This document shows positions 43,621 to 64,000 of a DNA stretch of 64,000 nt, one piece after another (within the stretch, counting starts at the first letter, position 1; each line of letters starts with the position of its first letter). This DNA is from Paecilomyces variotii. Lineage: Eukaryota. The notes below the pieces were generated by a model, which worked only from the letters and a program-made list of their open reading frames with translations, had not been told where the DNA came from and searched no databases. Made by a program: the position numbers and the translations under genes. The stretch is from NCBI GenBank assembly GCA_004022145.1, contig RCNU01000011.1. One strand, given 5' to 3'.

Positions 43621-44476
43621 TCAGGTCGCACCGCCATTTACCCTCACTACCTGCCCTGTAATCCATTCACTTTCCTTGCGCCACAATAGACTAACTGCTG
43701 TGGCGATTTCATCTGGCTTTCCGAGTCTTTTAAACGGGCTAAGGTCCGCTAGCGAGCGAACGACATCGTTGCTATTGTAGATCAAAAATTGCTCGGTTTC
43801 TGTAGCTCCTGGCGAGATTGCATTGACCCGGATGTTCTTCTGTGCGAGGTTTTGTGCCAAAACTCGCACCATCTGGTTCAAGGTGGCCTTTGTAGAAATA
43901 TAAAGTAGGTAGTGCGGCGGTAGGGTATTGAAATCGGTCAGATCGGATGAAATAAAAATGATCGTGCTTCCTGGCGGCATATGTGGAATGGCTTTCTAGA
44001 AAGGCATGTCAGTCAGTATCATTTCCATCAATATGCTTATATTGGGCAGTAATTGGAAGGGTCGATAGCAAGCTCTGTATGTGCCATCAGATACTTATTC
44101 AAGCAGAACATACCTGCACAAGAAAGCAGGGCCCTTTAACATTGACTCCAAAGGTTCGATCAAATTGGTCTTCAGTAAGAGCCTCAATGTCACCCGCAGG
44201 CATGTACACTGCATTTGGAACGAGCACATCAATCTTTCCGAACCGAGACACTGCAGAATGAACCAGATACTCGACTTCTTGGATCTTGGAAATATCGGCT
44301 TGGACGGCCACTGCCCGATCAGCTCCAATTTGTGAGACTACCGAATCCGCCGCTTCGACGTCTGACAAATAATTGACAATGACTTTGGCACCATCTGCAG
44401 CTGCTTTCAGAGCTATAGCTCTGCCGATACCTCTAGAAGCACCGGTTATGAGAACCACAAGGCCATCCAAACTCAT
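43621..44476 (-). CDS. Classical short-chain dehydrogenase/reductase; intron 43996-44113
   Basis: TGASRGIG, DVLVPNA, catalytic Ser (FISS), YISTK, IRVNAISPG and ITGQVVRVNGG. Confidence 0.9.
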
Positions 44477-45406
44477 GGTATCGAACGATAATGCGTTTCT
44501 ATACCATTTATTCCGCGCCTCAGGAGGTGACCGTGCAGACCCTTTATATATCTCTCTTCTGAGGCTCTGTTCGATGCGATCTGTATCATTAAGAAATCCA
44601 TTTGTCATAAGTCCCCCACTGTGATAACTATTCAATGATATCTAGACCGCATTAGATCTAGGCATAGGATGAATGGTAAGGTAAGTCTCCGATACTACTA
44701 GTCCACAAAAACTAGGAGCATTATGCCTCAATCTAATGATTTCTAGAAGCTCAATCTACGCTCTATAATAATAGTTCTCCGAGATATAGTTCCACCGAGG
44801 AACGCTTGCGGCCGAAAGATATTCCTATTTAGGAAAGTAGCCAATTATTTCTCCGGTAAGTTACCACCACTACTGCTAACTAATGCATTGATGATTGTTT
44901 GCATGTAGATATAATTTAGTTAATAGACGTCTTCTGCGTTACAGCTGCAAGTTAAACTACGAAGCAGATATCGTAGCTCTGTACTAACCACCCCACTGAA
45001 CTCGACGGATCCGATCGGTCTCGGAAAATAATTGGGATCACAATCTCGCATTAATGAACTAAATTAATGTGTCTCTAGTCCCAATATGCTTCTTAACCCT
45101 ATAGATTTAGATATAAAGTTATTATAATGTGCCTGTATGTCTGGTTTCTGGCTATTAAGTTGCCTCTAGTATATGACTTTGAGACGTGCAACCCTACATG
45201 TTATTATATTCTGAGAATTTAACTGCGGTTATTTTTTTCACAGTTTAGGAAAAATAATTGCCTATTGGTGGTTAAGGCAACAGGGCCAAGCCTTGAAAGT
45301 AAATATACTAATAGCTTATTTTTGTCTTGTGTTTTTCTTATTAGTTAACGTGATTGGCCAACTTCAATGCTGTGCACATTATTGACTGTGTAGCTTTTGC
45401 GTCGCA

Positions 45407-45583
45407 CTTGATTAAGATGCAGTATACGGGTAGCTCACGCCGCTTATTGATGAATAGTTGATTCTCTGTGCTTTTCAGGCTCATATTGCCGCCACGGACT
45501 ACGAATGCTTCGTTACACTCGAGCCATCCAACCTCCAATACGTGAAACCTTGTTCCCTTAAGTACGACATAACTAATAGTCAT
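45407..45583 (-). pseudogene. Truncated N-terminal fragment of a metallo-beta-lactamase-fold lactonase/lactamase (AiiA/AttM-like, fungal type)
   Basis: MTISYVVLKGTRFHVLEVGWLECNEAFVVRGGNMSLKSTEN...KRRELPVYCILIK matches, from memory, the N-terminus of fungal AHL-lactonase-like hydrolases. Similarity stops after ~59 codons and no HxHxDH motif follows. Lies in TpA-rich DNA. Confidence 0.6.
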
Positions 45584-46528
45584 CGTTTCCTAGTCCCTTT
45601 ATAAATGCTCGTTTAGTTTATGGCATCACATTCTAAATACTTATAATTTAACTTAGCATTATCTTGTTTCACGTAGATTCTTTCAGTCTCTTTTATAGGC
45701 TGGCGGCAACCGCTTGCTGAAGTGCTATATCAATTTGCGCCTAAGCATAATGCATAATAGCCAAGGGCTAATATTTTTACTGTTAGACTAATCGGGTGTA
45801 ACTGGAATAATATTTCTTCCGCATTGAGGAGCCGAAATGAGTGACTTGAGACTTATTAATGCAGTTTGGTCTAGGTACCTGGCAGAAGTCGTATTTGAAC
45901 TCCGTGGCTCTCCAGATAACTCAAAAGATCACTACTGTTGATCTAATATTAATAATACGACCTATGGTAGTAGTATGACTCGTAGAGGTATACCTTCAGA
46001 GGTCTATTCTTTCAGACAGTACGGAGTATGCTGATCGGACATGGTAAACTTGAAAAGCCGATTTTTTTTCTTTCTGACGGCCGTAAGAACTTCTAGACAA
46101 GGAAAATTGTCGGCGTCGGTTTTAGGCTCAGCCCGTCAGATTCGAATTATCCGGCTACGGACCTAAAGTCGGCCTACAAAGTCCGTTTTCTGTCATCATG
46201 AGCGGATAGCATGTAAGTATAGTACTTACCAGGCGGTTTGCCGTCAATGATCGGACCTGGGCGCCACAGTAGGTACAAATTGTATGGTATTTCCCGTGCA
46301 ACACGCATTTGCCCAACGAAGGACGATTCTCGCGACACAAAAAGAATCACAATATAGATGCTCGCAGAGACCAACGTTAGTCCTCCACCAATTCCCCCAA
46401 CCTTCTCGGCTGCTCATGCGCACTGATGCGACAAAGAAGCCGAAGTTTACAACAGTCGGCCTATATCTGACATATTATGAGTGTTTTGTAGGGAAAATAT
46501 ACTCCGTCTATCATTCATATTACCCACG

Positions 46529-47481
46529 ATGCTTATCCTAATTGCTGGAATCACTGGCTTTGTTGGCATTCCGTGTGCCAGGGCTGCCTTTGCACGTGGT
46601 CACAAAGTCCGAGGTCTGGCTCGTAATGCCAACAGACTCCCTGACGATATTTCCAACCAGCTTGAAAGTTTTGAGACTCTTTCCAACAATCATGATGTTG
46701 CTGCAATGGATCGGGCAGTGGATGGCATTGATGCGATAATCTGTGCCTTTGCCGGCCTTCCGGAGCTCTTTATGGAATCACAAATGTTGCTCCTTAGGGC
46801 AGCGGAACGCGCAGGAGTCAAGGTACGCTTTATCGATGACACTATCTGCTGCTGCAAATTGCTGATCTCTTCTAGGTGTTCCATGCCAGCTCCTGGAACT
46901 ATGACTGGAGACGTTCCCCCGGCACACATGAGATTTATGATGACATCAGGGCTTTCGCTCACCACGTCGAGATCAGCTCCACCATAAAGCCAATTTACAT
47001 GTTCACTGGCGCGATTGCCGAGTACTATTTCAGGAAGAGCCCAGCCGATTGGGACTCGAAAACAAAAACATTCAATTTTCATGGACCTTCTACGCAACCC
47101 ACTCGGTATACAACGACGAATGACATCGCCAATTACGTTCTCGAGGCTATCACTGCTCCGGACGCGTCGAGCGGAGGCTATATCTTTGTCCAGAGCTTTG
47201 AGGCTTCGCCAGAGGACATTGTCAAGGAATATAATGCGGCGAGGGAAGGCCGGATCACAGCCAAGCTTAATTGTTTGGGAACATTGGATGATGCAAAGGC
47301 TAAGCTGGATCAAGGGAGAGCTATGTACGAGAAGAAGGACTGGCCCAAGTATCTCTGGTATTGCTACCAGTACCACATCCCGTCTCGCTCTTGGGATTAC
47401 GAACCAAAGGATGTTTCCCGATTTCCGAACGTCAGACAGACGAGCCTATATGAGTTCTTTCGCCAGAACCCGGACGTGTAA
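46529..47481 (+). CDS. NmrA-like / atypical SDR (isoflavone-reductase-like fold); intron 46823-46875
   Basis: MLILIAGITGFVG Rossmann start, QMLLLRAAERAGVK|VFHASSW, and YTTTNDIANYV. Confidence 0.85.
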
Positions 47482-48245
47482 GCAATAAAGCGAGGTGGTC
47501 ACGAGCCGGTTTACCGAGTTTCTCATTCCGTAAAAAGACTTCAGAACACGGTCATATTCAAATACGTACAGTTCGAACTGCAATGAACTAGGACATGAAG
47601 TCAAAAACTTGAGATTATATTCCTGGAAAGTACTGATCAATCTGACAAAGAATGATTTACTCTTGTTATTATGTCAGACTCGACTTCTGGAAGTTAAGAA
47701 TATACGGCCTTAAAATATCTGGCTGCTCACTGGTCTACCGCCTATAGTAATACGCATAGAATAAAGTTACCAGTATGCAAGCTACTTTAAAAATAAGACA
47801 CTACCTAGTAATAGTAAATTTACTAATAGGTACTCCACTGGTGAATTTGCATATTTGTCAGAAAGCCTCTTTAGGACTATCAAGCCGAAAATATTAAGAA
47901 AGGTAGCTCTTCTACAACTACGTCTTTAAGGAAAGGTCATGTATTTATTATCTGATAGTAAATAGAGAAAAGTGCCTCTTAAGCAAGAACTAATCGTTGG
48001 TAGAACAACTGATACAGCTTTTCTCGGCCGATAAGTTCTAACCCTGAGTACATATACATCTTTTATCATTCGATACCGTCAGAATCCAATTACGATCAAA
48101 TGCGGAACATCTAACAACAGCTAGCTAGGATCGAATCGAAATGTTAAACAGGGCCCACGTACTCATTGAAAGGCTGTAAGAAAAGCTCATTTATAACGCA
48201 TGAAATCCTCTCTCCACTTACGTAGTAACCTGCCTCAACCGTGAC

Positions 48246-50522
48246 TTACGGAACCTCGTTTAGAGGTCCGATTTCCTTCAAGGGAACCACAGGAACCCGG
48301 ACAAAATTCGAATAGCCACCTCCGACGTGCAGCGTATTGATAGCATTGACATGGTACTCTTTCGCCCACGATCTCAGAGGGGGTGGCCTGTAAGATGGAA
48401 TGTCCGGTTGGGCTTCCGAAGGAAGGATGTCGACTCTCAGCCGCCAACCAGATCGGATTCGAGCTGCAACTGGGCAAATTTCGACATTCACCTCACAGAC
48501 CTCTTCCCGTTGTAGAGGTGCATAATCCTTTTCCAAATGAGTGTGCCAAGGTCTCCAAGGCAAGCTTTTCTCTGGATCTGTCGCTCGATGACTGGCCCTT
48601 AGGAGACCAGAAGCGAGCGGTTCAAGATTCGGCCCAGTGCAAAACTTCACCACCTGGTCATTTTCATCTATCGCCCACAGTGAAACAACAACATCGGCAT
48701 CATGTGATGTCGATGAAATATTGAGTGTTGCGGTAAAATGGCCAATCAATTCTATGTCTTTTCCAAATGGTTTGGAGAGGAAGCTCACTCCTGCCTTTGC
48801 GGATTTAGGTTCAATGTCTGCCATATATGAAAGTGCCTTAACAGGTGCCCCAACCGGTGTTTCGGGCCTCAGACTGCCATCAGGGTAAAGATGCCAGTCG
48901 ATATATTTCGTTCCGGGGATTTCCCAGTCATCTTCAGTTCGCCAATACCATTTCCCGTCGCCGATCCTCATTTGGATCCCGACCTTCTCCAAGTCATAGT
49001 TGTCTAGTCCTTTCAGATAACGTTCAGTGAAGCGCAGCAACTTATGAGCCGCAACCTCATTTGGCCAGCTGAAATAATTGGAATCAACAATCTGTAGATG
49101 TTTGTTTGTGGAAGAAACCCGTCGCCATGCTTCGTAAGGACCTCGATGATGGAAGATGAGCATTTGAGCAGCTGCCATAAATACCGGGATATCAATATCC
49201 TCAATCTCGCATTGCAATCTCTCCCAATAATCATCATAAAAAGGGTGACCGGCAAAGGTAGTCACTAGATCCTCGGCTGCTGGCCACCGGGGCGATGCGG
49301 CGTTGATTCCATCACTCCAGGGGCGGAGATAGTTCCACGCGGAGATACCCCCGACATATCCAAGATCCCGGTACAAGTCAACATCCGCTGCAAGCTCGAC
49401 GTGAGTATTTTCATACACAAGGAAAAGAGGGAGTCAACTCACTTGCATAAGGAATAATAGCTCTGAGTCCTTTCGGTTTTCGCACCGCAGAAGGCCATTG
49501 GCAATTGGCCCCGTACGAGTTTCCGGCCAAGCCGACATTTCCAGTGCACCATGGTTGTCTTGCAACCCATTCTACGACATCACTAATGTCACTCGACTCT
49601 TGGGGTGATACGAGAACACCTCGTGTCCCTGGTGTTTGTGAAACCCCCCGAGGATCGATCTTAACCATGGCATATCCTCGTGGAACCCAGTAGAATGTAT
49701 TGAACGTCCCTATTGTCTCATAAACTCTCTGTTTAGTCCATGTTCCAAACCAAGGGCCTGTGTTCGGAATATGCAGGGGCGTGTCGGCAGAAGTTGAATG
49801 CCAGTCATCTTCTGCCTTTTCGAAAGCCGCTACTTCGTCGTAATCATCGCGTCTTGGCCCGGAATACACTACTCGTTTGCCGTAGACTGTTGAACTGACC
49901 AAAGCTGGAAGTCTTCCCTCCGGAGGCAAATATATATCTCCAAGGACATAGTTTCCATCTCTCACAGGAATTTGGATGTCACGAAAGACCCGGAATCCTG
50001 CGATAGCTCGTCGAAGATGGTTCCGAACATGTGGTATGCTTTTGACCGGTATTCCAATTTCGGCACCAATTTTCTGGAGGACCTGGTACACGTCTCTTGT
50101 GTCTTCGGCATCGAGATTAATCTCATGAGCGTAGTTCGAGACAGTGTGTTGAATCTGCCGGAGATTCTATCATTAAGCATCAAGACGGAGATGATATAAA
50201 TTGGTAATTGTGTGTAACTCACGTCATCATTTATTTGTATGGCTTTCTCAAAACCCAACGACGGAGTAAGGCTGAACAGTAAGGCGGCCCTGTTGAGAAG
50301 TTTTGGATTGCTAAGTGAAGGATTGTCGACCAAGTCGAGGACACTCAGTCTCTGCCGTCCTTTAGCTACACCTAACTGAAGGGACCCGATAGAGAAGGAG
50401 ATGTCATCCCCATCATAGTATTGAAATTGACCGTTCGGGCTAGAAGTGGTTCCGGATAGATCGCCACATTTATATGACAGCCCAACTGTATCGGTAAAAA
50501 CACCTGTTGAGAATGAAGCCAT
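48246..50522 (-). CDS. CocE/NonD (peptidase S15-like) alpha/beta hydrolase with an extra N-terminal domain; introns 50155-50222 and 49388-49442
   Basis: RDIQIPVRDG, GYAMVKIDPRG, WVARQPWCTGNVGLAGNSYGA nucleophile elbow, and a C-terminal PepX_C-type jelly-roll (IELIGHFTATL...GLLRASHR...GWRLRVDI). Confidence 0.88.
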
Positions 50523-51323
50523 TTTCAAACAGATAAGTTGCTGAAGAACACAGAGTTTGACAGAGAGACAAGAGATATAGCAAAATCAGATTTCCGAGAG
50601 AGTACCTAGTTATTGTCGGAGGAGCGTTTATCTACTAACAGATTGTCTGCTCAGCTCTTAATTGCGAATTTGATAGATAGCATACAACGATTCTGACCTA
50701 CCTCTAAGTAGAGACATTTCACTTAGGCTATGTTCGGCAACTCACACAGCCTTTTGCACACCATTGCCGATCGGAAACATTATGCTGATAACCAGAGCAA
50801 ACTCAGCCGATTGCTCTGACGTTGACCGCCTACGCACGTTTACGAAGTAGCATGATCAGGTTCTTGGGCTGGGTTTTCTGGCCGCTTCTCTCAGTTGGGT
50901 GAAATCGTGTAGAAGATGTGTACAATTTATCTTGAGTTCGTAAGCCACCAGCAACGCCCTATACTGTATTAGCTGTCAGTAATAATCTCCCTATGCTGAC
51001 CAAGATGTACAGGAATAGTCTTTTTTATTTTCGAGTTAGTTGGAGACCAAGTCCGCTATCTGGAGGTCTCAAGAGGTATCCCTGCTACATTCTTATTCCA
51101 ACTATTGTTATGTCTAGAGCGACACAAGTCAAACGTTACAATAAACTATGTTACCGAGGATTGACTGTTGTAGTTCGTATACAGAAATAAACGGTTTGTT
51201 TTTCTTATCGAATTGCACTCGAACGATTTGTAAAGAAATTCCAATTCCAATCTTCAGTGAGCTTGCACGAAACGTATGTACATTCAATTGTCCATGTAAG
51301 GTGTCTGCCATCTTTTAGATTGC

Positions 51324-52127
51324 CTAGTTGAAGATTCTTCCATCACTGCTGTCAACCAGAGCTCCTGTGGCAGAACGATCCTTCATGGAATAGATGTAGG
51401 CCTCTGCTACATCCTCTGGCCAACCCAATTCTCCTGTCAGCAGTGTCTTCCTCCAGTTTTCTTTCGCTTGTTCAGGGAGCCTGGCCAGCAATGGTGTCTG
51501 CACAACACCAGGCGCGACAACATTTACTCGGATAGGTGCCAAGTCCTTAGATAGCCCAAATCGCATACCCTCGGTTCCGGAAGCGAAGGCTGCGAGGACT
51601 GTCCAGTCTGCCTCAGGTCGCCGAGTCATGGATCCACTAGTAAGAGTAATTGAGGATCGATTCGAAATACGCATATATTTCGCAGCGAGCTTCCCTATAA
51701 TCAATGGCGCAAGGAAGCGAACAGTACCGGACTTGAGAATCGACGCAGGTGTCGAATCATTGAGAGGGACAACCTTGAGAGTATCACCAGCCGTGAAGAT
51801 AATATGGTCGATAAGCCGCTTTTCATTTGGTAATCCACTCGAGGCCAGTTCAAACAGTTTCCGCAGGTTGTCTTCCAGCTGGTCGGAAGAGCCGAGATCG
51901 CAGGGGGCTCCAGAGATGCGATGATGGAACTCACTACTATGATATGTAGTTTTCAGCTCAGTTATCGCACGCTGGACGTTTTCTTCCTGGGAACTCGTCA
52001 CAAAAACGGACGCTCCGTGTTCCAGGGCTGCCGCCGCAACGGAGAGTCCAATGCCCTTAGTTCCCCCGAAGATGAGAACAAACGAGCCATCGAGTTTGTT
52101 GATAGATTTGAACCTTATCTCACTCAT
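51324..52127 (-). CDS. Atypical SDR lacking YxxxK (MalC/PhqE-like subfamily)
   Basis: VLIFGGTKGIG, IDHIIFTAGD, GTVRF, ITLTSGS, RPEADW, IRVNVVAPG and PEDVAEAYIY. No Tyr-x3-Lys at the catalytic position. Confidence 0.88.
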   Translation of the reverse strand: MSEIRFKSINKLDGSFVLIFGGTKGIGLSVAAAALEHGASVFVTSSQEENVQRAITELKTTYHSSEFHHRISGAPCDLGSSDQLEDNLRKLFELASSGLPNEKRLIDHIIFTAGDTLKVVPLNDSTPASILKSGTVRFLAPLIIGKLAAKYMRISNRSSITLTSGSMTRRPEADWTVLAAFASGTEGMRFGLSKDLAPIRVNVVAPGVVQTPLLARLPEQAKENWRKTLLTGELGWPEDVAEAYIYSMKDRSATGALVDSSDGRIFN

Positions 52128-53019
52128 TTTAACAGAATAGTTCCAGTCACCGTATCAATTCTTTTCGCTTTTTCTTTTGTCACCTTGACTTCTGTTTCTA
52201 GTTCAGCCAAGCTGCCAGATATATCATAACTGCTATGTTGTCACTTCAATTCTTAGTGGGATGTGTATTAATAATTAGTAAACACCATGTAGCCTATATT
52301 ATAAGGCTAAGGGCCGCATTATTAACCGTCTCTTTCGTGCTGGGCAGTCATGCCTTGATATTATTGCACTGGGAAGTAGAGAATAACCGTTGCCTATATC
52401 AACCATAGCCGAAGAGCTATCCATAGTAACGCAAAGAACGGTTGGTCTCCGGAGCCTGAAATAATGCTTCCGGCGTTAGCTTCATATTTGTAATAGTCTC
52501 TGATCCACCTTTCAACGAAAATAGTCTCCCTAACTATAGCTTGTGCATATGAAGTTAGGAAGGCACAACCCGCTCTTCAAGTCAGATATGCCGACTTAGA
52601 GGGCTGCTCAAGAAATCAATCGGACAATTTGAATTCGAGTCAACACTGAAGGTTGTAAACTTATGGACGGCAAAGAAAAAAGAAAAGAAGAAAAAAAGAA
52701 AAAAAGGGGGAGCTACAAATAGATGCTTTGCTATTGCCATGAGACTATAAGATTCTTAAGGTTTATTTCAAGATTAGCCTGCGACTTCGGTATTTCATAC
52801 ATTTGATATAGTCCGTTCTTTTGGTTTTCAGGAAGGCTGTAACTACTTCTTCTGTGCGATATAGGTCTTATTTTCATTGAAACCAAGAACTACCATATCA
52901 AATAAAACATTCAGCATATGCTCAGTAATCAATGCATATACTGAAGCTTAAGATCCTTAGGATACAACAGGTAGATGCCAACAACTTGCCAGATCAAAAA
53001 AAAAAAAAAAAAATAACAT

Positions 53020-54867
53020 TCACTGAATGCTTTTTCCCAGCAGTCGCCCCATTGCTTTCCGCAGCAATTCTTTATGGCCAGAAGATGTATCTTCGGCCTT
53101 CCACGCAATGAAACCATCAGGCCTAATGAGCAACGCCATACCCGTACCTAATCTACCCTTGTTTCTCAACATTCCGCTATAGTCACGATACGGCTGAGAT
53201 GTTTCGTGTAAAGCATAACTGTCAATCTGGAAACTGAGATTCTTGGCAGCGAGGAGCCATGGAGAGGCAGTTTCAGCAGCCACGAGAACAAAGTTCTGCT
53301 TGATCAAGTCGAGACTCGAGATGTGTGTCCCACCTTGACACTCGAGGGGGATGTGAGGAAACCTAGAACCTGCAGAGCCACTAGGTGTATGTGGATCTTC
53401 GTAATCCTTGTCAAATGTATCGCACTCTGCCGGTATGATGGCTCCAGCATTATAGCGGCATCCAAACTCGACGGTGTAATATGGTTCTTCTGGTACTCGA
53501 GGTATCGTGTTCATGATCCGATTCCGGAAGCGACGGGTGGCTTGGTCAACAACGAAAGCGTCTACGGGCTTTCGCTCCGCCTCATAACTGCGCAACAACG
53601 AAGGTGACGCTCTCCCGGTTATAACATATGCCAACTTCCAAGCAAGATTGTGCGCATCCTGTGAGCGTCAGGAGGAGCATTCCTTGAGACCACCAGGGCA
53701 ACACTTACATTTATCCCGGTATTTCCCCCGAGTGCACCTGTCGGCGGCATTATATGAACAGCATCTCCTGCAAGAAGAACTCGACCTCCTTTAGACGTAA
53801 ACCTTTCTGCTATGTATGATGCCAGTGTCCAGTGAGCAAAGGACAACAGCTCCATATCTCCCTCCCTAAAACCACCGCACTCGTTGACATAGCGCTTGGC
53901 ATCCTCCTCTGTCACGGAGCCGGGAGGAAACTCTGTTTTCCCATCGATACTGTTTATCCATAGGAGTCCTCCTTCGCCACGGTTTTCCTGGCGGAACGCA
54001 CCGGTAATGTGAGGTGTTGTGATGTACATGACTCCATGTCGGCTGCGTGATCCCAAGAGTCGTTTAATATCAGCTTTGAATCTGATATTGAGACTGCTGC
54101 TGAGAATCCCATGTCCGCTCAATTCAATACCCTCTTTTCTGCGAGTAGAGCTCCGATTGCCATCACAAGCAACAAGATATTGTGTCTTGTATTTCTTGTA
54201 TTTCTGCGTACGGAGCTCTTGAACGACAACAATGACACCATCTGTTTTCTCTTCATAATGGACTATTTTCGTTTCGTACTGCGGGGTGTATCCAAACCTG
54301 GGTGCGTACTCCAGCAAGATAGGTTCCAACATGGCCTGATTCATCCAAAGCCAATTGGACGGAGTCACCTCCGCATCTCTTTTAGGATCATGTTCTTGGA
54401 CTTGTTGGATTACCTTACCGCCGATGAGCTTTTCAACAACGAGTAGTCCGGAATCGATATCGAATTCACGGACGCTTTCTGCCTGACAGACCTTCTCCAA
54501 ATTTATCTGTCGAAGGATTTCTGAAGTCCGGAAATTCAGACCCGTCGCACGTGGGTGGGACAGGATCGTGGCATGGCGGTCGAAGGAAGTACTTTTAACC
54601 CTATGCGGAAACAACGTAGGTTAATTCTCATGTCAATGATGTATACAGATATATTGAGAATACAAACCCCCAGTGACCCAGAAGTAAGCCCATGATCATG
54701 CCAACCAAGCTGGATCCCATCATTATGACTGGCCATTCTTCCTTCTCAAATGGAATAGAGGAAGCATCAAAACCATCCAGAATCAAATCTGTAGCTGCTG
54801 GCTTTGAGGCGTCTATTCTGTCATCCACCTCCTCCAAGCCCTTCGTCGTGGTACTAATTTGCGCCAT
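53020..54867 (-). CDS. FAD-dependent aromatic monooxygenase (FAD_binding_3; PheA/TfdB/RdmE-like); introns 54601-54667 and 53659-53708
   Basis: GSSLVG dinucleotide-binding start, HPRA, ACDGNRS (DG motif), LAGDAVHIMPPTGALGGNTG|DAHNLAWKL (GD motif), and C-terminal LLIRPDGFIAW. Confidence 0.92.
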
Positions 54868-55195: not shown

Positions 55196-55215
55196 CGGCT
55201 ACGGCGCCGTAGCCG
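55196..55215. promoter_or_regulatory. Perfect 20-bp palindrome CGGCTACGGCGCCGTAGCCG, candidate Zn2Cys6 site
   Basis: Self-complementary and centred in the divergent promoter of the FAD monooxygenase and the ABM gene. Confidence 0.6.
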
Positions 55216-55479
55216 CTGTTCTAACGGTAGAGGCATTGTACTCCCGAGGTTTGCTTACCCACAGGCTAAGTATTGCTTCTGCCGGTCGGTCCACATTGCA
55301 AGGAATCTTTCAGGGTCGACAAAAATGGATCAATGTGTCAAGAAGAGATATTTGCACTCACTTTAAATATCAGATATCATGCGCCTCACTAAAATCAGTG
55401 TCGTTGGTTTTTTTTTTATGCGCAAGCTTTGACATATAGCTGTCTTCTCTACATTATTTCTTCCGTCAACCATTGAATA

Positions 55480-55869
55480 ATGTCCGTGATTATCATTGTT
55501 CATCTATATACAAAAGATTCACCAGAAATGGTGGAAAAAGTGCATAAAACACTTCTTGAAGCGGCCCAGGTTTACAGACGAGATGAAGGAACTGTTGCAT
55601 GGCTACCCGTGCAAGACACTGCAGATCAACGAGCCTTTTCAATTTTTGAGAAGTTCGACTCGGAGAATGTATGTTGAATCCTATGTGCTTTTATTCCGTT
55701 ATTATTTGCTTTCAATTCTGGAAATAGAAGCAGTGCACTAGTTTTCTGACTGCAGGAGAAATAGAGCTTCAAAGCCCACCGTGAAAATCCATATCGGAAC
55801 GAATTCCTACCTACTCTCACTGCACTCTTAGACCGTCCGGTGCAGCAAAGCAAATACAGAGAATTGTGA
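55480..55869 (+). CDS. Small ABM/Dabb-barrel protein (antibiotic biosynthesis monooxygenase / quinol monooxygenase-like); intron 55669-55764
   Basis: Spliced product is about 97 aa: MSVIIIVHLYTK...RRDEGTVAW...AFSIFEKFDSEN|SFKAHRENPY, matching the ABM pattern (E-G, F/YE-x-F, AH). Confidence 0.8.
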
Positions 55870-55975
55870 CATTATCGTCAATTCCTTCATTCCTAAGCAG
55901 TTCTACTAGGTACTAAAGTAGTTAATGCTAGGATGTGGTTATGTCAAAATATTGTTCAGGAATTAGTTCATCTAG

Positions 55976-58277
55976 TCACACCAGACCGTTAAGCCCAGTT
56001 TCTTTCTCCGAAGACTCACTATGCCCAACCAGGCCACGAGTCGTAGTATTTTCTTTACCCTTAGTGTTCAGTCTCTCCCATATGCCGATTTTATCCCCAA
56101 AGAATTGCTTGTATCTGGGAATAGCACAGAATATCCGATCCAATTCCAATAGGCACGAAATAGACGCTTGCTTCCTTCTGTGGATCAGGTCTTCTTCGTA
56201 TGTTGATTGCGTTTCAACGGAATGAAACACCATAGCGGATAAGATAATCATCTCCCTTGACAGGGAAAGGTCAGAACACCTTTTTTTTCTTTCATAGATT
56301 GGAAGACAGACTCACGCGTAAATAGGAAACTCGTTGGCTTCGAAGAAGTTCGATATGTCGGTGGCCAGATCGCAAATCTGAATCGCAGCATAAAAGGCCA
56401 AATGAGTAGAAAAATCACGTTCGTCGACAGAATGCTTCGCATCATTGAGACTTGGTCGGTGCAAAAGTAGCAGGACTTGGTGATGTGTCAAAGACAATAA
56501 TAGACTAAATCGATTCCGATTCAAATCTCTGTTGTACTGCATACAGGGCTCGAGCCCTGCTTGCCAATTTTGCAGTTCCAAATGCATCTGAGCTTCCACA
56601 TCTTCCTGTGGCCGCTTAGACAAAGGTACTGGTGAATATTTGTAGCGGACTACATCAGTCACTGTGAAGTTTGTTAGCTACCCCAGTCAATGTGAACTGG
56701 ACAAGACGCCCGAGGTATGAAATTGCGCTGTACCGATCTTAGCTAATCTCAACATAGAAATCGTAAAATATGCTGTATACGAAGACTCGCCATCGATAAA
56801 ATCGTCCCTGGTAAGTTCCTCCACGTCGCAATCCCGTAGGTCGATCATTAGGGGTTTTCCGATTCCGAGGGCGAGCTGACGATCACGAATCTACAAAGGT
56901 TAGTCACTAGACGTAGTCAGAAATAAATGATACTGGGGGATAGTTTACGAAAAGGAGCCACCAGATCTTCTTCCATAGCCGTCTATCTTCTGCGGAGATC
57001 GTCGTATTTCTCGTGCTTCGATGCATTCCAATTGTTTGTGCCACACTGATAGCCATGCTCGCCCACCAGAAACAGTCTCTGTGACTGGGAGTAGGTCCGA
57101 ACCGAAATTGTAGCATAAATGTGGATTGAACAATCGTGACCCTGTCCAATTCGACATCATTATCATATAGGTGCCTAGCCTTATGGTAAAAATACTCCGT
57201 GGCATCCTGTCGGGAAGAGAACCCTGCGTTTGTAATGATCGATATTGGCGCATGGAGAGCCCCAATAAAAAATATGGTTTGTTTAAGCAATGGAGAAACT
57301 TTACCGGAGATCCATCTGTTTATGAACTTGTCCTTATTCAAGATAGGATAAAGAGGAAGAAAGTTCTGACAGAACGAGTCAAGCAAGCACTTCTCCAGCC
57401 TTTGAGACTCAATTAGACGTTTGTCGTCGCCGGTGATCTCAGAAGTCACATAACCCATATCGTTGAGCCCAAGTTCGATTGTTCGATGTACTTGCTTAGA
57501 ATCCAGTCGGTCGCTAAGCAGCCAAAAAAAGAGTGAAGACTCTCCTATATGTACCATTTGTCCACAATCTGCCATGCTATTTGAGCAGCGGCCACTTCCG
57601 TTTGGGTTACTCCCTGAGCGAATTTCTCCTCTCGATACGGTTTCAATATGAGGTCGAGCGAATGGTTCGTAAGGAGGCGTCGTACTGTCATTAGTGACTT
57701 GTTGTGATGGTGTCCCGACGTGCTGCTGTGAAGGCGTCCTTCGAGTACCGTTTCTCTTCGATATTTCAAAACGACCATGTCGACCTCTAACAAACACAGG
57801 AAAATTAGCGATCAGTCTAAAAAGGCGAAACCATACGTAAGATTCATAAACGGACCTGTATCTCTTAGAGTCAATAAAGGAGCATTCTGCTGAGCGCACT
57901 CGGCAATTAGAACAGGGCAAACCACGGCTGGCAGCATCACAGCGGACACGTTTGTCGTGACAAGCTCTACACGCGATCGAAGACCGTTTCCTTTTTGTTT
58001 CCCTACTAGACTTCACAACTGGGGATGGAGATTCAGGCATTTGAGTCTGCTGGTCTGCATTGCTTGCTTGGGGTTCGGGAGCAGTAGCAGAGTTGTCTAT
58101 CGTTGTGATGCAGGCATCATTGATTCCCGTAACTGGCTGCAGAGAAGCTAAGGCAGATATGAAAACGGCATCATTTCCGAGGTCTTCATTGTTTTCAGTA
58201 AAGCTGTCGATATCGAATTCAGGAAGATCGAAGAATTGGTCTTCTGCAGGACCGTTGGAGAGGTTGGTGCGTTCCAT
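55976..58277 (-). CDS. Zn(II)2Cys6 transcription factor with fungal_trans domain; introns 57787-57855, 56891-56948, 56662-56733, 56256-56315
   Basis: ACRACHDKRVRCDAASRGLPCSNCRVRSAEC binuclear cluster and middle homology region AQTIGMHR...RRLWKKIWWLLF|IRDRQLALGIGKP. Confidence 0.9.
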
Positions 58278-59032
58278 GGACAGGTCTATTCGTATAACTA
58301 GATTTGCAACAACGATTAACACGACGAGGTTTGAACAGTGAAGAACAGAGCCAAGTCACCAGGATACTTAGCCTGAGCACGTAGTCTCAGACACTCCGTG
58401 CTAGGCTCTGACAGATTCTAAAGCCCCCGCATTTTCGGGTCCAGAGTTTGGTAATCGAGACAGCGAATCAACAGGTATTGCGGTATCCTGAGCTCTAAGT
58501 GCGGTATGTAAGAGACAAACCTCATTGTTTGCGAAACACTTGTATCTCAAAGAAAATGGGGCATTTCTTTCATAGCAAAGCTCGATATATCATCAACTTG
58601 CCTCTAGCAGCTAGCGAGATAAAAAAGGAGAGCACGCCATTTCTGATATGAAAGCCGGACGCATAGTACAGTATATCGTACAGTCCTGTTTGTTTGTTTG
58701 TTTGTAAATCTCATAATGCATGACTAGGACTTCGAATACAAAGATAGTGAGGTGCGTCGTAGTTCCTTGCCTCCTCATATGAGAGGTATTAGTATCTTGC
58801 TACGGTGTGGAACTCATATCCCAAACTCCTATGCTTCTATTACCTCAGGAACTATAGGACAAACAATATTCAAATAAGTAATCAGAATTTATTCGAGAAC
58901 ATTTTATTAAATACAAAATCCGTGTTAAAATATTGTCGTGGTTGTAATTATTGACCTATGTACTCGTGAGCTGTCTAAAAACATCTATCCGAAACTGTTC
59001 CGCTTCTACTCCGCTTATACCTAAAATGGGAT

Positions 59033-59401
59033 GTTTTTCGGCCGGTGCGGAATGTTAACAAATGCGCAAGACCAATTATGCGAAGATTAGCACGTCGCTT
59101 TCATTAGTGCCCACTACGCAGAAGTCATGCCAATGCATTATTATAATAATAAGCTGCGAACAGCGTCATCGAGGGAGCTCACCGTGGATAGGAAATTGTA
59201 AGAAGCAGCTCTAGGGGTTCTAGTTGAACATTATAAGGGGTGCCAGCCTGTGATAACCGCTACACTGTGTATAGTCTTTTTGGCTGACTTCCTTCAAGAT
59301 GCACTATCATAGGTTCGAACTAAAATGTAGCGAGATTTTCCCGAATAGTTTGCTGAAGGGGATAAGGAATTACCAAATCCAGAAAGTTTTTCGGCCGGTG
59401 C
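59033..59401. promoter_or_regulatory. Exact 16-bp direct repeat GTTTTTCGGCCGGTGC at 59033-59048 and 59386-59401
   Basis: Two identical copies in the divergent promoter between the Zn2Cys6 gene and the dioxygenase. Each is followed within ~20 nt by AATGCGCA. Confidence 0.65.
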
Positions 59402-59613
59402 TAATGCGCATTATACTGAACTATACTGAGATCCACAAAACATCTAAGCTTTGCATGTATTAATATGCCTTATAACTTCACACAATGTACTTTCATAAGT
59501 GGGGAATCCTATCACATTACGGCTATATAAGAATCTACTCATAAGAGACTTTTGACTCCAGTCCCAAAATGCTATTCCGACAAAATTAGCACCAAACAGT
59601 TTAACAACTGAAG

Positions 59614-60477
59614 ATGCCATCTCTCGAGAAAGTAAGCAGAGCCCCTGCAATATTCATTTCACATGGCGCCGGTCCGTTTCCTCTCCTGAATGAAGACCAT
59701 GAGCCATGGAGGAAGATTATGCAGGGGCTTGCACATCTCCTCGAAAATGCCAAAGGCATCATACTATTCACAGCCCATTGGGAGACATACCAGCCTCACG
59801 TTTCTGGTTGCGATGATGCGCGCCTTTTCTATGACTATGCAGATATGGAGGAGGTCAAATCCTTTATTCCGAAGGAAGCCTACACGATCCGATATAATGG
59901 TCGGGGTGACTCCGCCCTTGCTACGAGAATCTCAGAACAACTTCGTGGTGTTGGGTTCGAGCCGGTCATTGATAACAGTCGGGGATGGGATCATGGTGTC
60001 TTTGTCCCAATGTCTATTTTGAGACCCAGCGGAGATATACCGATCGTACAGATGTCAGTGCTCAAACGAGATAATGAGCATCAGTCAACCAATGCAAATA
60101 TCCTCCTTGGACAAGCAGTCGAAAGTTTTAGGGATGAGGGTTATGTGATCTTGGGAAGCGGTGCCACCGCGCACAACTTTGAGGAAGCAATAAAGGTCTA
60201 CCTCAGCGATGATCGCAATCCGAAGGTGTCTGCTGAAAACGAACAATTTGCAGAGTTTCTTCGGCTTACAGCGTCTTGTTCGGACCCGCATCGGAGACGG
60301 GAGAAACTGTCCATGTGGAGGGAAGCTCCGGGTAGCTTCATTGCACATGCTCCTGGAAGTTCAGAACATCTCATGCCATTTATGGTCGTTGCTGGGAGCG
60401 GCGGACATGATACGGGGAAGAGAATGAATGTATGGGAGCTCGCTGGAGAACCAACTGCTTTCTATGTCTGGAGTTAG
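59614..60477 (+). CDS. Extradiol ring-cleavage dioxygenase, class III LigB / 4,5-DOPA dioxygenase-like
   Basis: Conserved His motifs of the LigB/DODA family: PAIFISHGAGP, TAHWET, RGWDHGVFVP, PIVQMS, GSGATAHN, AH...EHLMP. Intronless. Confidence 0.92.
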   Translation: MPSLEKVSRAPAIFISHGAGPFPLLNEDHEPWRKIMQGLAHLLENAKGIILFTAHWETYQPHVSGCDDARLFYDYADMEEVKSFIPKEAYTIRYNGRGDSALATRISEQLRGVGFEPVIDNSRGWDHGVFVPMSILRPSGDIPIVQMSVLKRDNEHQSTNANILLGQAVESFRDEGYVILGSGATAHNFEEAIKVYLSDDRNPKVSAENEQFAEFLRLTASCSDPHRRREKLSMWREAPGSFIAHAPGSSEHLMPFMVVAGSGGHDTGKRMNVWELAGEPTAFYVWS

Positions 60478-60799
60478 AGCTGCTGCGATGCATTTTAATT
60501 CTTGTGGTTCCTAAGATCTCAAAATGAACTATTTATCCAGTTAAGATGATATGTCATGTAGCTGCATCTTCTGCTCTCTAAAGACCGAAAAAGGTAGAGT
60601 GAGCAAGACGAACACGCGGTGTTGTTTATCTATCTCATTTGTCCCCTATACTTAGTAAGAGCACTGATATACACTGTTTCGAGATCCTTCTGTTCTGGGG
60701 TACTATTACACCACAAGCATAAATTCTTTGAAGTACTGATGAAACTAAGGGCGGAGAACATACATTAGGATCTATTAAATTCTTAGATCCAACACTGTT

Positions 60800-62004
60800 C
60801 TATTCCCTGATCTTCAACAACGATGCCACAGTGTCCTTGATAGACTCCCGCAAAGTGCGATATCTCAAGCCCAAGACATTTACCGATTTCGAATTGTCGT
60901 ACTGATAGATATCCTTCGGTAAATCTCCGGGAAGATTTCTAGGAGGAAGGACCACAGAAAGATGAGGATATTCTTCCCGGATAATGTCGACAATCTGCTT
61001 GTTATCATAATGTCCTGCAGTGACGAAGAACCTCTCATTCTCAGTACCCGTTGCCGTAAGTGCCCGAATGTGAGCACGTGCTAAGTCACGAACATCAACC
61101 CATAAGTAAAGATTAGTCGGTGGAATTGCATCCTTGTATTCTCCTTGGATGATATCCCGTATCCTAGTGTTCGACGTATTGATGTCGCGCAGCGATTCCA
61201 CGTGGTGTATAACAGGACCAAAGACGAGTGGAGGACAGAAAGTTGTCAGGGAGAAATGGGGCTTCTCCTTCTCCATAAAATCCCATGCTGCCTTCTCAGC
61301 AAGCTTCTTGCTCGCTGGATAGGTGACGGACGGACGCAATGCATCCTGATATGTCATTGGATTCCAAATGCTCTCCGAGTATGTGGCTGGATGACTATCG
61401 AAGTTGATCATTGCTGCAAACGAGGACGTGATGATGAATCGTTTCACCGAGGGGGCATATTCAGTCACGGAACGAAGGATTCCGATAGTTCCTTGGATGG
61501 CCGGCTGAAGTATTTCATTCTCAGGGTCATAGGGGTTATAGAAGTAAGGACTGGCAGTGTGGATGACAGCATCAAATGGCGCATTCGCCTGAAAAGCGTG
61601 ATCGAAGGCACCTTGTTTGACGAAATCGTCGATGACAACAAATGACACCCTCTTGTTTGCGGCATCGCGGTCGTGGCGATCAAGGATCTGTTGGCCTCTA
61701 CTGGTAGACCGAACGGCGAAAACAACCGTGTGTCTTGATAGTTAGCCCACACACATAGAGAGGGAGCGATACACAGAGAGAGAGATACAGAGAGAGAAGA
61801 TAATAGAAAGGAAGCCAAAAGAGAAAAATATAGAGCTGCAGAAGTTCTAGAGTGATCGGGATCCATACCCATGGTTCAAGAGATCATTGAGAATGTGGGC
61901 TCCAATGAAGCCACTCGCACCTATAGCAATAGTGCTATTCTCAGTGGGTGGTCGTCTAAGTTATCGATCGGTAGAAACATACCTGTTAGAAAAACCTTGG
62001 TCAT
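60800..62004 (-). CDS. NAD(P)H-dependent aldehyde reductase / extended SDR (Gre2/dihydroflavonol-reductase-like); introns 61921-61982 and 61734-61868
   Basis: Reconstructed N-terminus MTKVFLTG|ASGFIGAHILNDLLNHG|HTVVFAVRS, then VIHTASP, ITSSFAA, YPASKKLAE and WVDVRDLARAH. Confidence 0.9.
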
Positions 62005-62948
62005 TTTGTGTTTCAACTCAGCCTGTACACCCTGAAACGCGCACTGTGAAAATGTCTAAGTATGATTCTTCCCACCGCGGTGATCAAGTGCCATCCTCCA
62101 GAGCCTCTTATAGCTTAACGATGCATGCTTTGTAGTAATTTTTGGTACATTTCTTTAGGGGTGTTTCGGTTCGGCTCGGTCACACACTTAGGCTATCTTA
62201 GCTGTCGGCATACCTAAGTAGGTATGTACTTAGCCTGTCATGTCTTCTGCTCGTGAGTATTAGACGTTGCCACGACGGAATCTTCCCGATCCTTGGAATA
62301 TAGGCCCTTTCTGTATGGTAGTTACGAGGCCAATAGAGAGTATGTATATAGTAAAGAGGTTCGAATGGAAAGGCTCTATGCGAAGAGCGCGATGAACCAT
62401 GCAAAGATGTGCAGCACAGTGCATATCCATATCTCAAACGGTACCCTTCCACCATGATAACCCTATTGTAGTGATGATTCGATCCTTGGATGAACAGAAG
62501 CGAATCACTCCGTTCTGACCACGACAGCATTTGTCTCTGGTTATAGTTAGTTGTAATTGCTCATAAGTATTTACTCGTTCCAAACTAGGAAAGACTCTCG
62601 GCCGCGTCACTTCCTAGAACGGGTTAGTCGAATCCAGATAATTTCGAGGAATGAGTAATCCTTTTCTGCCTGAGGCTTCAAATGAGATTACATAGTCATT
62701 CGAGATCGAGTTCTCGAAATCGAATCCTCGAATGTTTATTTGTCACTTGGTAATCTCACGGTCGGCCAGATGCTCTTTTCGTGGCCAGATTTTGCCTCTT
62801 AGTAACTGAGCATCGCCATTGAGGATGGGTTTGTAATGCAAATCCGTGTTGGACATGGAAGTTGCGATACAGTTACTACTTATGCATGTAAGAAGAGGAT
62901 GCTCTGGCCCACGGCAGTCGACGGCTTCACGACTCTGCTGCGTTTACC

Positions 62949-64000
62949 ATGGCTTCTTACAGGGGTGCTAGACATGACGAACATCCTCCCTCAGATGCAC
63001 CGCGCTTTCTCCGTCTTCATTTGGATCGCCCAAGGCTGGCGAGGAATCGCGAAGTGCAAGCCTGCGAACAATGTAGGTTAAGAAAGATAAGGTGTGACCA
63101 ATCAAAACCACATTGCGAAAGGTGTAAGGTCAATAGCCGACCCTGCGTCTATCGACCCAAAGCTGCCACGAAGGCACGACAAGTCGGGCTACCTGAAGGT
63201 CAGCCTTCGGGTACGAAGCCTTTCCATGACCACATACAACAATCAGATGGCGAACGAGAAGAAGGACAGACGATTCGACTCAACCAACACGGTCATCTCA
63301 AAGCTAACAATGGACTTCGACTCCGGTATTATTCCAGCTCTTCGTGGGTGGCATCTGTGGAAGAATCGGACGTCTCGATGCCGCTGGATGATCCCTTTGC
63401 CCTCTCCAGTCAAGGTCTTCTGGGTTTCAATAACCCATCTCTGGGGCTCTCAACTGGGGGTATCGATCGTTTTATCCAATCGAATGAGGTTGATCGACTC
63501 ATCTCGTGGTACTCTCAATACTGCCATTTCTGGTTTCCTCTCGTCGAGATCGCAGAAGTCATGACTAGTCTGCAGGACCTACGCCGTCATAAACGTTCTA
63601 CCCCTGGGGCAACAGCTATAATATCTGCTCTTTGCTATACAGCATCATGTTCTGCATCTGCCTCCAAAGATGTAGGGTCATCACTGAGTTCCATCCCGTC
63701 ATCATCATGGAGGAACGTGGCAAGTCAACTTCTATTTGACTCTGGCTATCCCAGTCGGCCTAACCTGAATACTATCAGAGCAGCATTTCTCCTTGCGGCG
63801 CCTAGTATGACAGAAGGAGCCTCACATCCTGACCCAGGCCCTGTTTGTGTCCTCGTGCGAGCTGCTCAGTCTCTCGGCCTGCACCGGGAGCCTATGTTGT
63901 TTCAGTTGTCTGCACATGAGGCGGATCTTAGCCGCATCCTCTGGTGGTCAATTCGTGTGTTAGATACAACCTATGCGGTGGCTCATGGTCTCCCACTGTT
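62949..64000 (+). CDS. Second Zn(II)2Cys6 transcription factor, truncated by the window end
   Basis: Not in the ORF track because there is no stop inside the window. Manual translation from ATG 62949 gives ACEQCRLRKIRCDQSKPHCERCKVNSRPC, later AAQSLGLHREP...SRILWWSIRVLDTTYAVAHGLP. Open to base 64000. Confidence 0.9.
   Translation, partial: MASYRGARHDEHPPSDAPRFLRLHLDRPRLARNREVQACEQCRLRKIRCDQSKPHCERCKVNSRPCVYRPKAATKARQVGLPEGQPSGTKPFHDHIQQSDGEREEGQTIRLNQHGHLKANNGLRLRYYSSSSWVASVEESDVSMPLDDPFALSSQGLLGFNNPSLGLSTGGIDRFIQSNEVDRLISWYSQYCHFWFPLVEIAEVMTSLQDLRRHKRSTPGATAIISALCYTASCSASASKDVGSSLSSIPSSSWRNVASQLLFDSGYPSRPNLNTIRAAFLLAAPSMTEGASHPDPGPVCVLVRAAQSLGLHREPMLFQLSAHEADLSRILWWSIRVLDTTYAVAHGLPL

Follow-up and report, generated by a model that had tools for sequence, protein, structure and literature searches.

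Results

Gene content of the island

The window (the whole stretch analysed, 64,000 nucleotides of a Paecilomyces variotii contig) ends in a series of ten open gene models between positions 43621 and 64715 (Table 1). Matches to Pfam or NCBIfam back nine of them. For the tenth, the ABM-like protein, neither database matched exon 1, and the assignment comes from ESM Atlas, where a cluster composed to 82% of PF03992 matched with a feature score of 0.91. The encoded proteins are 98-100% identical to P. variotii database entries, and the models of the CocE/NonD-type hydrolase (CocE), the flavin monooxygenase (FMO) and the LigB dioxygenase (LigB) are 100% identical to database proteins. Introns in the genes for NmrA, FMO, TF1 and the aldehyde reductase were confirmed by spliced contigs assembled from RNA runs, four of 23 of which were used; such contigs reveal splicing, not levels. 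Run X1 covers intergenic DNA without joints and so resembles DNA; runs X9 and X18 each cover 7 of 30 bins, and missing cover of LigB in them does not mean silence. An earlier sequence-only reading had seen ten apparently intact enzyme and regulator genes here, and all ten are real and intact.

These genes form the left part of a low-GC accessory island of about 35 kb that lies between housekeeping genes. The GC content is 0.453 at 43-78 kb versus 0.494 and 0.495 on the flanks, and both flanks consist of housekeeping genes; given this contrast and these flanks, the island is more than chance. Beyond the window follow island genes for a DUF3425 protein, a further SDR, an alpha/beta hydrolase, a DUF1295 protein and an ADAM protease, which have no common theme, and no transporter was found in the island.

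Table 1. Genes and candidate promoter elements of the island within the window
Feature	Position	Strand	Remarks
SDR1, classical short-chain dehydrogenase, 245 aa	43621..44476	-	one intron (43996-44113)
CCGGCTACGG, candidate Zn2Cys6 site	46151..46160	+	upstream of NmrA; identical 10-mer in FMO/ABM promoter
NmrA-like NAD(P)-binding protein, 299 aa	46529..47481	+	intron 46823-46875 and 5'-UTR intron 46376-46491, both seen as joints
CocE/NonD-type (S15) hydrolase (CocE), 717 aa, SACOL2612-like	48246..50522	-	core of conserved module
SDR2, atypical SDR, 267 aa, intronless	51324..52127	-	between CocE and FMO
Group A flavin monooxygenase (FMO), 576 aa, RubL/RslO9/RdmE/MbnF-like	53020..54867	-	FAD_binding_3 + Rng_hyd_C; core of conserved module; intron 53659-53708 seen as joint in spliced contigs
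20-bp perfect palindrome, two inverted CGG-N3-CGG half-sites	55196..55215	.	FMO/ABM divergent promoter
ABM-like (dimeric alpha+beta barrel) protein, 97 aa, one intron	55480..55869	+	model and feature match
TF1, Zn2Cys6 + Fungal_trans regulator, 680 aa	55976..58277	-	four introns, three of four seen as joints
15-bp direct repeat TTTTTCGGCCGGTGC, copies at 59034 and 59387	59034..59401	+	TF1/LigB divergent region
LigB/DODA (YgiD-type) extradiol dioxygenase (LigB), 287 aa, intronless	59614..60477	+	
Gre2/ARI1-type NADPH aldehyde/ketone reductase (ARI), 335 aa	60800..62004	-	two introns; 61921-61982 seen as joint
TF2, Zn2Cys6 + Fungal_trans regulator, 588 aa	62949..64000	+	continues 715 bases beyond window edge

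A CGG-N3-CGG 10-mer, which was chosen after the fact, is common to the NmrA and FMO/ABM promoters (2 of 300 shuffles) and so links them. It is not present upstream of CocE, and the repeat in the LigB promoter differs from it.

Absence of a backbone gene

A profile search of the genome gave no PKS, NRPS or terpene synthase match on the 891-kb contig. The matches to ketosynthase (at least 22), condensation (at least 30) and terpene-synthase (at least 5) profiles all lie elsewhere in the genome, with PKS loci present on other contigs. An ORF survey for backbone genes spanned 132 kb; its 68 kb to the right of the window contained accessory and housekeeping genes only. That the window holds no such synthase, as had been stated from the sequence, is therefore true of the entire contig. 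Because the contig has no backbone match, the stretch does not supply the tailoring enzymes of a neighbouring cluster, and the suggestion that such a cluster continues past the right edge is refuted.

The same reading had proposed a lactonase relic. Six-frame scans of the intergenic gaps, with stops read through, gave no Pfam match below E 0.05, PF10282 matched six times in the genome and never on this contig, and tblastn of ORFs from four of the six lactonase loci returned nothing below E 0.5 in 43-64 kb. Neither Pfam nor PDB nor the lactonases of this genome supported the relic, which was not confirmed and was rejected. By eye only, the DNA at about 45.4-46.0 kb has a lactonase-like look. 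A Starship origin was also rejected, since no DUF3435 captain is present on the contig and both DUF3435 matches lie on contig C45. Each of the 12 P. variotii strain tags shared by the two hit lists has both FMO and CocE; strains without the island would not appear in these lists. FMO, SDR2 and LigB are also present in P. lecythidis.

The hydrolase and the flavin monooxygenase

CocE scored 111.8 bits with TIGR00976 (cut-off 66.3) and has the GxSY serine motif and the C-terminal PepX_C domain of a CocE/NonD hydrolase. Both the GNSYG motif of the nucleophile and the YGK tyrosine are retained; Ser313 is serine in 23 of 23 aligned rows, and none of the 23 sequences varies at Q412, H417 or Y442. The fold is that of SACOL2612 from S. 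aureus (CocE/NonD, peptidase S15; TM 0.63), with which CocE has an H-x-R-G motif in common, and of cocaine esterase (TM 0.57), which has the same serine motif and YGK tyrosine. The acid/His region can be aligned with SACOL2612 but not with cocaine esterase, whose catalytic Asp and His could not be placed in the alignment. In contrast to both, the window protein carries an additional N-terminal domain of about 100 aa that is weakly like AcfD/SslE (two weak matches). We know of no substrate for SACOL2612. Scanning metagenomes with the CocE alignment yielded 79 loci, all 24-35% identical and none a fungal orthologue; LigB was a neighbour in two of them, an SDR in one and an FMO in none.

The FMO has the domains (FAD_binding_3 and Rng_hyd_C) and the DG and GD motifs of a group A flavoprotein monooxygenase. 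On the same FMO exon, the RdmE/DnrF/MbnF models matched with E 1e-51 to 1e-47 and the phenol 2-monooxygenase model PRK08294 with E 6e-6. Its fold is nearest to RslO9, RubL, MbnF, GrhO5 and RdmE (TM 0.81-0.84, 27-32% identity, under the NCBIfam cut-offs), while the hydroquinone hydroxylase TvMNX3 ranked 49th at 17% identity. The enzyme is closer to RubL/RdmE/MbnF than to a simple phenol hydroxylase. The earlier label of a PheA/TfdB-type aromatic hydroxylase thus stands for the group A family in the wide sense, but not for a phenol-to-catechol hydroxylase. The three-domain fold and the flavin motifs are those of the RdmE-type enzymes, whereas the window subclade has its own residues (PPTGAL, FRQE, HWT) at motifs that are otherwise conserved, and no synthase is near the window gene. 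At about 30% identity the solved relatives leave the substrate unfixed. Bacterial relatives (33-38% identity) sit among transporters, dehydrogenases and regulators: none of 80 loci had CocE, LigB, ABM or NmrA, 19 of 80 had an SDR, which is unspecific, and no PKS family occurred among the 56 recurring neighbour ORFs scanned.

Linkage and phylogeny of the CocE-FMO pair

Outside Paecilomyces, linkage was read from accession order and from agreement in the length of the longest contig, not from DNA at the loci. By this measure CocE and FMO are adjacent in Fusarium sp. LHS14.1 (KAI8711053/052) and one gene apart in Leptodontidium MPI-SDFR-AT-0119 (KAH6694301/303), Cadophora MPI-SDFR-AT-0126 (KAH7383399/397) and Leptodophora (ACEPPN_010944/942), that is, linked in four of the six non-Paecilomyces species with both identifiers readable. 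The two unlinked species, D. macrodidyma and A. calidoustus, hold more distant copies. One gene also separates the two in the window, where it is SDR2. The window's CocE and FMO are 64-67% identical to those of the Fusarium and the three Helotiales; since the three Helotiales are 97-99% identical to each other, only two outside lineages are independent. An S15 hydrolase and an FMO 15 kb apart on contig C34 were considered as a paralogous module and rejected, with unrelated genes between them.

In both trees the window protein grouped with Fusarium and Helotiales and not with other Eurotiales (FMO, UFBoot 100; CocE, FastTree 1.0). Constraining the Eurotiales FMOs to one clade costs 244 logL units; the corresponding CocE test does not bear on the window gene in particular, as other Eurotiales CocE copies are themselves scattered. 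Corynespora and Ilyonectria have FMOs in the window clade and no CocE among the 32 matches listed, and Cadophora DSE1049 has a near-clade CocE and no FMO among the 102 matches listed. Loss of old paralogues can also give patchy trees. The pair is probably shared with these distant, partly root-associated ascomycetes by horizontal transfer. A conserved hydrolase and hydroxylase fit the 'hydrolyse, then hydroxylate' part of the sequence-only reading, and its backbone-less accessory locus is supported.

LigB and the proposed ring cleavage

LigB has the intact metal-binding and catalytic histidines of an extradiol dioxygenase: H17, H55, H252, H127 and H187 are all present and align with H15, H53, H229, H119 and H175 of BvDOD. 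In the tree it groups with Penicillium/Aspergillus copies (P. psychrofluorescens and A. pseudoviridinutans, support 0.956) and not with the LigBs of Cadophora and Leptodontidium, and it adjoins the CocE-FMO pair only in Paecilomyces. FMO, SDR2 and LigB have consecutive locus tags in two annotations of P. lecythidis. Cadophora 0126 is an ambiguous case, with one LigB on the contig of the pair at a distance of 27-29 accessions; the Leptodontidium 0119 match is on a different contig from the pair, and the best 120 of 129 matches include no LigB from Fusarium LHS14.1. FMO and LigB have different tree partners, which argues against co-inheritance of hydroxylase and dioxygenase, and the nearest relative of SDR2 outside Paecilomyces is in Penicillium cosmopolitanum. 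These separate histories do not support one dedicated ten-gene pathway, as had been envisaged, and the putative ring-cutting step is, judging by the trees, of separate origin from the CocE-FMO core.

In bacterial meta-cleavage operons a hydroxylase and an extradiol dioxygenase lie near each other, as they do in the window. The remainder of such operons differs: no lower meta-pathway enzyme (aldehyde or semialdehyde dehydrogenase, semialdehyde hydrolase, tautomerase, hydratase or aldolase) was found among the island ORFs scanned, and none of the genome's 10 FAA_hydrolase matches is on this contig, which speaks against the extradiol (meta) catabolic route suggested earlier.

DODA/YgiD class III dioxygenases (BvDOD, E. 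coli YgiD, Neolecta NiDODA) have PF02900 with three metal and two catalytic histidines, as does the window LigB. BvDOD is reported to need all five histidines retained here (PMC11926856); its Thr17, which positions DOPA, is Ala in the window protein. Characterised members of this class form betalamic acid from DOPA, with no feed into central metabolism. In vitro, an ascomycete YgiD-type enzyme cleaved L-DOPA (PMC13263728), and A. niger with all 17 ring-cleavage genes deleted, LigB-domain ones included, kept its growth on gallate unimpaired (PMC10512348). PMC10512348 and PMC12388069 describe fungal extradiol cleavage as unreported or uncommon and assign no role to the LigB-domain genes of A. 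niger.

Discussion

On balance, we lean towards a composite accessory island whose core, CocE and the RdmE/RubL-type FMO, would be a detoxification module for an acylated aromatic, probably horizontally shared, with other accessory genes accreted around it. What we observed are the gene content, the family assignments, the accession-order linkage and the tree positions; all the reactions, the substrate class and the transfer we infer. Most likely, the hydrolase would take an acyl group (ester or amide) off a bulky aromatic, exposing a phenol or amine. With NAD(P)H and O2, the FMO would then hydroxylate the activated ring, and quinone or carbonyl products would fall to the SDR, NmrA and ABM proteins, the outcome being detoxification and not growth on the compound. 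One regulator would raise FMO, ABM and NmrA via CGGCTACGG sites, plus CocE, and LigB would answer to a different signal. LigB, ARI and TF2 would be separate arrivals, with or without a role in turning over the product.

Possible, though doubtful, is a single co-regulated pathway, in which the hydrolase would free a phenol, the FMO would make a catechol and LigB, recruited in Paecilomyces to extend the imported pair, would open the ring extradiolically, the pyrone or muconic semialdehyde then being reduced or excreted. The retained BvDOD-required histidines and the L-DOPA cleavage by an ascomycete enzyme (PMC13263728) are consistent with it, as are the same-contig LigB of Cadophora 0126 and the P. 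lecythidis locus, where LigB is kept beside the pair despite a changed order. It is opposed by the tree position of LigB, the Leptodontidium and Fusarium results, the differing promoter repeat, the lack of a lower-pathway gene among the island ORFs and the gallate growth of the 17-gene A. niger mutant (PMC10512348). That Paecilomyces joined a horizontally acquired CocE-FMO pair to a resident LigB, giving a regulated extradiol ring-opening route, we consider unlikely. If true, the fungal LigB family, which is uncharacterised, would gain a physiological substrate, and the locus would illustrate how a fungal pathway can be put together from parts with different origins.

Chance accretion, with the island a landing site for unrelated accessory genes and CocE and FMO travelling together only as former neighbours, appears improbable. 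SDR, NmrA and Zn2Cys6 genes are common in accessory regions; their presence would suit this explanation, as would the at least three histories among the ten genes and an island remainder with neither theme nor transporter found. However, CocE and FMO have remained at most one gene apart in three fungal classes, through a protein divergence of about 35%, and all ten genes are intact, several of them spliced. Very improbable is a stand-alone tailoring locus for an aromatic polyketide from a synthase elsewhere in the genome, as in a biosynthetic cluster that is split or a relic. Aromatic polyketides are what the closest solved FMO relatives tailor, tailoring enzymes are typically of kinds such as ABM proteins and ketoreductases, and PKS loci exist on other contigs, but this contig has no backbone and the scanned neighbours of the bacterial FMO relatives included no PKS family.

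A literature search, which covered few subscription journals, found no paper on this gene combination. Published degradative cluster models (ARD/PMO, Gluck-Thaler and Slot) are backbone-less like the island: in them an aromatic-modifying enzyme is accompanied by oxidoreductases and regulators, their distribution over Pezizomycotina is patchy, and plant phenolics are their predicted substrates. The island appears to differ from these models in that its conserved unit is CocE plus an RdmE-type FMO and not a dioxygenase. The composite island that we favour offers, in the linked pair, a small, testable unit: two uncharacterised enzymes that a mould of food and soil, one Fusarium and three Helotiales have all kept together, which points to a common compound that these fungi must disarm. 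If LigB is coupled to the pair, the locus would open the question of fungal extradiol cleavage and the role of LigB to direct test; if it is not, the locus would be another degradative cluster, with an unusual core.

Gene content and transcription

Ten gene models, all of which translate without internal stops, encode a short-chain dehydrogenase (SDR1), an NmrA-like protein, a CocE/NonD-type hydrolase (CocE), a second short-chain dehydrogenase (SDR2), a flavin monooxygenase (FMO), an ABM-like protein, a Zn2Cys6 regulator (TF1), a LigB extradiol dioxygenase, a Gre2/ARI1-type reductase and a second Zn2Cys6 regulator (TF2). Nine gave Pfam or NCBIfam matches; the ABM-like protein was assigned by its ESM Atlas feature score (0.91). 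Database entries from Paecilomyces variotii match the CocE, FMO and LigB proteins at 98-100% identity. The sequence-only reading had described ten apparently intact genes, in agreement with these models, and a lactonase relic, for which none of five tests gave support.

RNA evidence came from assembled contigs of four of 23 runs (X1, X2, X9 and X18), which carry joints, not levels. Since contigs of X2, X9 and X18 were joined at introns of the NmrA, FMO, TF1 and reductase genes, these genes are transcribed and spliced. The NmrA-like gene also has a 5'-UTR intron with a GT..AG joint in the contigs. X1 contigs were unspliced and DNA-like in appearance. An X18 contig (run 90-95% alike) with a loose end matched an intergenic segment that may be a decayed gene, intact in a relative; our guess is that the lactonase relic had been perceived here. 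X1 and X2 shared two identical loose ends, which could reflect a structural variant or similar sequence at another place in the genome. A ~90-bp element, possibly a small repeat, has two further genomic copies (78-81% identity).

Features of the locus and of related regions (window coordinates unless prefixed; the window corresponds to G000:C3:372001-436000)
Feature	Location	Strand
Ten gene models	43621-64715	
Intergenic match to X18 contig	45410-45493	
5'-UTR intron, NmrA-like gene	46376-46491	
CocE residues 405-445	48246-49387	-
CocE N-terminal ~100 aa	50223-50522	-
Loose ends, X1 and X2	51196; 63008	
~90-bp element	59196-59287	
Island continuation: DUF3425 protein, SDR, alpha/beta hydrolase, DUF1295 protein, unassigned ORF, ADAM-type metalloprotease	L004:3897-10000 + L005:1-5158	
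HNH_2 endonuclease-like gene	L006:5731-6675	-
Dioxygenase, SDR, S15 hydrolase, GH43 and FMO genes on a second contig	G000:C34:1185001-1215000 (L091-L093)	

The island is flanked on the left, below 43 kb, by housekeeping genes (Trs120, DEAH helicase, cwf21, Pumilio, tuberin, Cse1 and a release factor). The accessory run continues past the right window edge, and housekeeping genes, the HNH_2 endonuclease-like gene amid them, resume near 78 kb. GC content is 0.453 within the island versus 0.494-0.495 outside. No Starship captain was found on the 891-kb contig.

A palindrome of 20 bp in the FMO/ABM promoter contains two CGGCTACGG half-sites, and this 10-mer, which occurs 28 times in the genome, also precedes NmrA. 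A shared word arose in 2 of 300 shuffles of these two promoters, a pair picked post hoc from 15. In the TF1/LigB region the repeat is another one, a 15-bp direct repeat. Together, these motifs hint at two putative regulons.

The CocE-FMO pair in other fungi

Our main finding is a cross-class module smaller than ten genes. Among the matches listed, CocE and FMO were two locus tags apart in nine of the 12 P. variotii strain tags common to both lists, and on different contigs in the other three. Fusarium sp. LHS14.1 and Leptodontidium sp. gave the best non-Paecilomyces matches for both proteins. Neighbouring FMO/CocE accessions were found in four of six outside species with both identifiers readable, namely Fusarium sp. 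LHS14.1 (KAI8711052/053), Leptodontidium (KAH6694303/301), Cadophora MPI-SDFR-AT-0126 (KAH7383397/399) and Leptodophora (ACEPPN_010942/944), and in all four the two proteins came from contigs of equal size. Thus, accession order points to linkage outside Paecilomyces. In Dactylonectria macrodidyma and Aspergillus calidoustus the copies are unlinked and more distantly related. As the three Helotiales are 97-99% alike, they and Fusarium count as two independent lineages besides Paecilomyces; the independent lineages of the pair share 64-70% identity.

In a tree of 30 sequences, the window FMO and those of Fusarium LHS14.1, the Helotiales, Ilyonectria and Corynespora formed one clade (UFBoot 100), apart from Penicillium and Aspergillus copies, and a constraint grouping the Eurotiales FMOs was rejected by 244 logL units (fast search, 2000 replicates). 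The CocE tree (25 sequences) recovered the same partner fungi with FastTree support of 1.0. Horizontal transfer would be the simplest reading of both trees; loss of old paralogues is a possible alternative.

The two enzymes

CocE passes TIGR00976 and comes closest to SACOL2612. Ser313 and Tyr191 are retained, whereas the acid/His region is not alignable with that of cocaine esterase. Where the canonical acid and His are expected, Gln412, His417 and Tyr442 are invariant in the fungal clade; His417 is likely the catalytic base, and catalysis may rely on an unusual arrangement like that of SACOL2612. The N-terminal region weakly matches that of AcfD/SslE (E 4e-4). All 23 aligned sequences contain this domain, even the distant protein P0253, a hint that the fungal clade is of old bacterial origin.

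The FMO is predicted to adopt a group A fold (pLDDT 88). Among solved structures, it is nearest to RslO9, RubL, MbnF, GrhO5 and RdmE (27-32% identity), then to PieE and HbpA, while the fungal hydroquinone hydroxylase ranks only 49th. Most of these relatives act on polycyclic aromatics, and identity near 30% is too low to pin down a substrate. Bacterial relatives (33-38%) are neighboured by transporters, dehydrogenases and regulators; CocE, LigB, ABM or NmrA lay beside none of them at 80 loci.

On balance, we favour a detoxification module within an island that accumulated other genes. With reactions as expected from family membership, the hydrolase would act first on an acylated, probably bulky aromatic and the FMO would then hydroxylate it, while reductases and the ABM protein would deal with quinone or carbonyl products.

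LigB and the meta-cleavage question

A full pathway, with LigB coupled to hydrolase and FMO, appears rather unlikely to us. All three metal histidines and both catalytic histidines of BvDOD are conserved in LigB, but Thr17 is not (residues described in PMC11926856), and LigB is probably an active extradiol dioxygenase. Two annotations of P. lecythidis list FMO, SDR2 and LigB one after another, so within the genus the three stay associated. In Cadophora, one LigB (47% identity) shares the contig of the pair, 27-29 accessions away on the CocE side, which is too loose for a cluster, yet not negligible. In the tree, however, the window LigB is placed with those of P. psychrofluorescens and A. pseudoviridinutans (58% identity, support 0.956) and away from those of Cadophora and Leptodontidium, and the Leptodontidium match lies on a different contig from its pair. 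The island yielded no lower meta-pathway enzymes or transporters, which fits detoxification better than growth. Of the proposed hydrolyse-hydroxylate-cleave route, the genes for the first two putative steps recur in outside fungi, whereas LigB, the loose Cadophora case aside, lies beside them only within Paecilomyces, and a single ten-gene meta-cleavage unit is not supported. Only one full-length representative of the 50% library is close to SDR2; it comes from P. cosmopolitanum (73%; next full-length at most 48%), and closer Helotiales copies could be hidden within that cluster.

Chance accretion of genes seems improbable, with the separate grouping of LigB in its favour and the recurring pair against it. 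Remote tailoring of an own polyketide is the least credible account, given polycyclic substrates among FMO relatives on one side and, on the other, none of the 22 ketosynthase, 30 condensation and five terpene-synthase matches found in the genome, each count a lower bound, on the 891-kb contig. The latter result extends the reported lack of PKS, NRPS and terpene synthase genes from the window to the whole contig, and therefore refutes the idea of a tailoring half whose cluster runs past the right edge.

Comparison with published work

The searched literature, whose coverage leaves out most subscription journals, held no report of a CocE and RdmE-type FMO pair. Backbone-less degradative clusters are known, and some classes are built around aromatic ring dioxygenases and phenol monooxygenases (10.1101/184242, PMC10735191); our locus resembles them by their description and may match one of the published models. 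Five main central pathways are listed for fungi (PMC10832562), and extradiol enzymes are called less common there (PMC12388069). By one account, intradiol cleavage was until then the one type reported from fungi, and A. niger still used gallate after deletion of 17 ring-cleavage genes, LigB-domain ones included (PMC10512348). An ascomycete YgiD-type enzyme is reported to cleave DOPA in vitro (PMC13263728).

On a second P. variotii contig, 30 kb hold genes for an RPE65-family (carotenoid/stilbene-type) dioxygenase, an SDR, an S15 hydrolase, GH43, a PheA/TfdB-type FMO and an intradiol dioxygenase, with unrelated genes interspersed; the last two adjoin and resemble a usual ortho-cleavage pair. 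LigB matches also included three butterfly proteins of the family (P0144, P0166 and P0167; 35-40% identity), and LigB is mentioned in Lepidoptera (PMC12477841).
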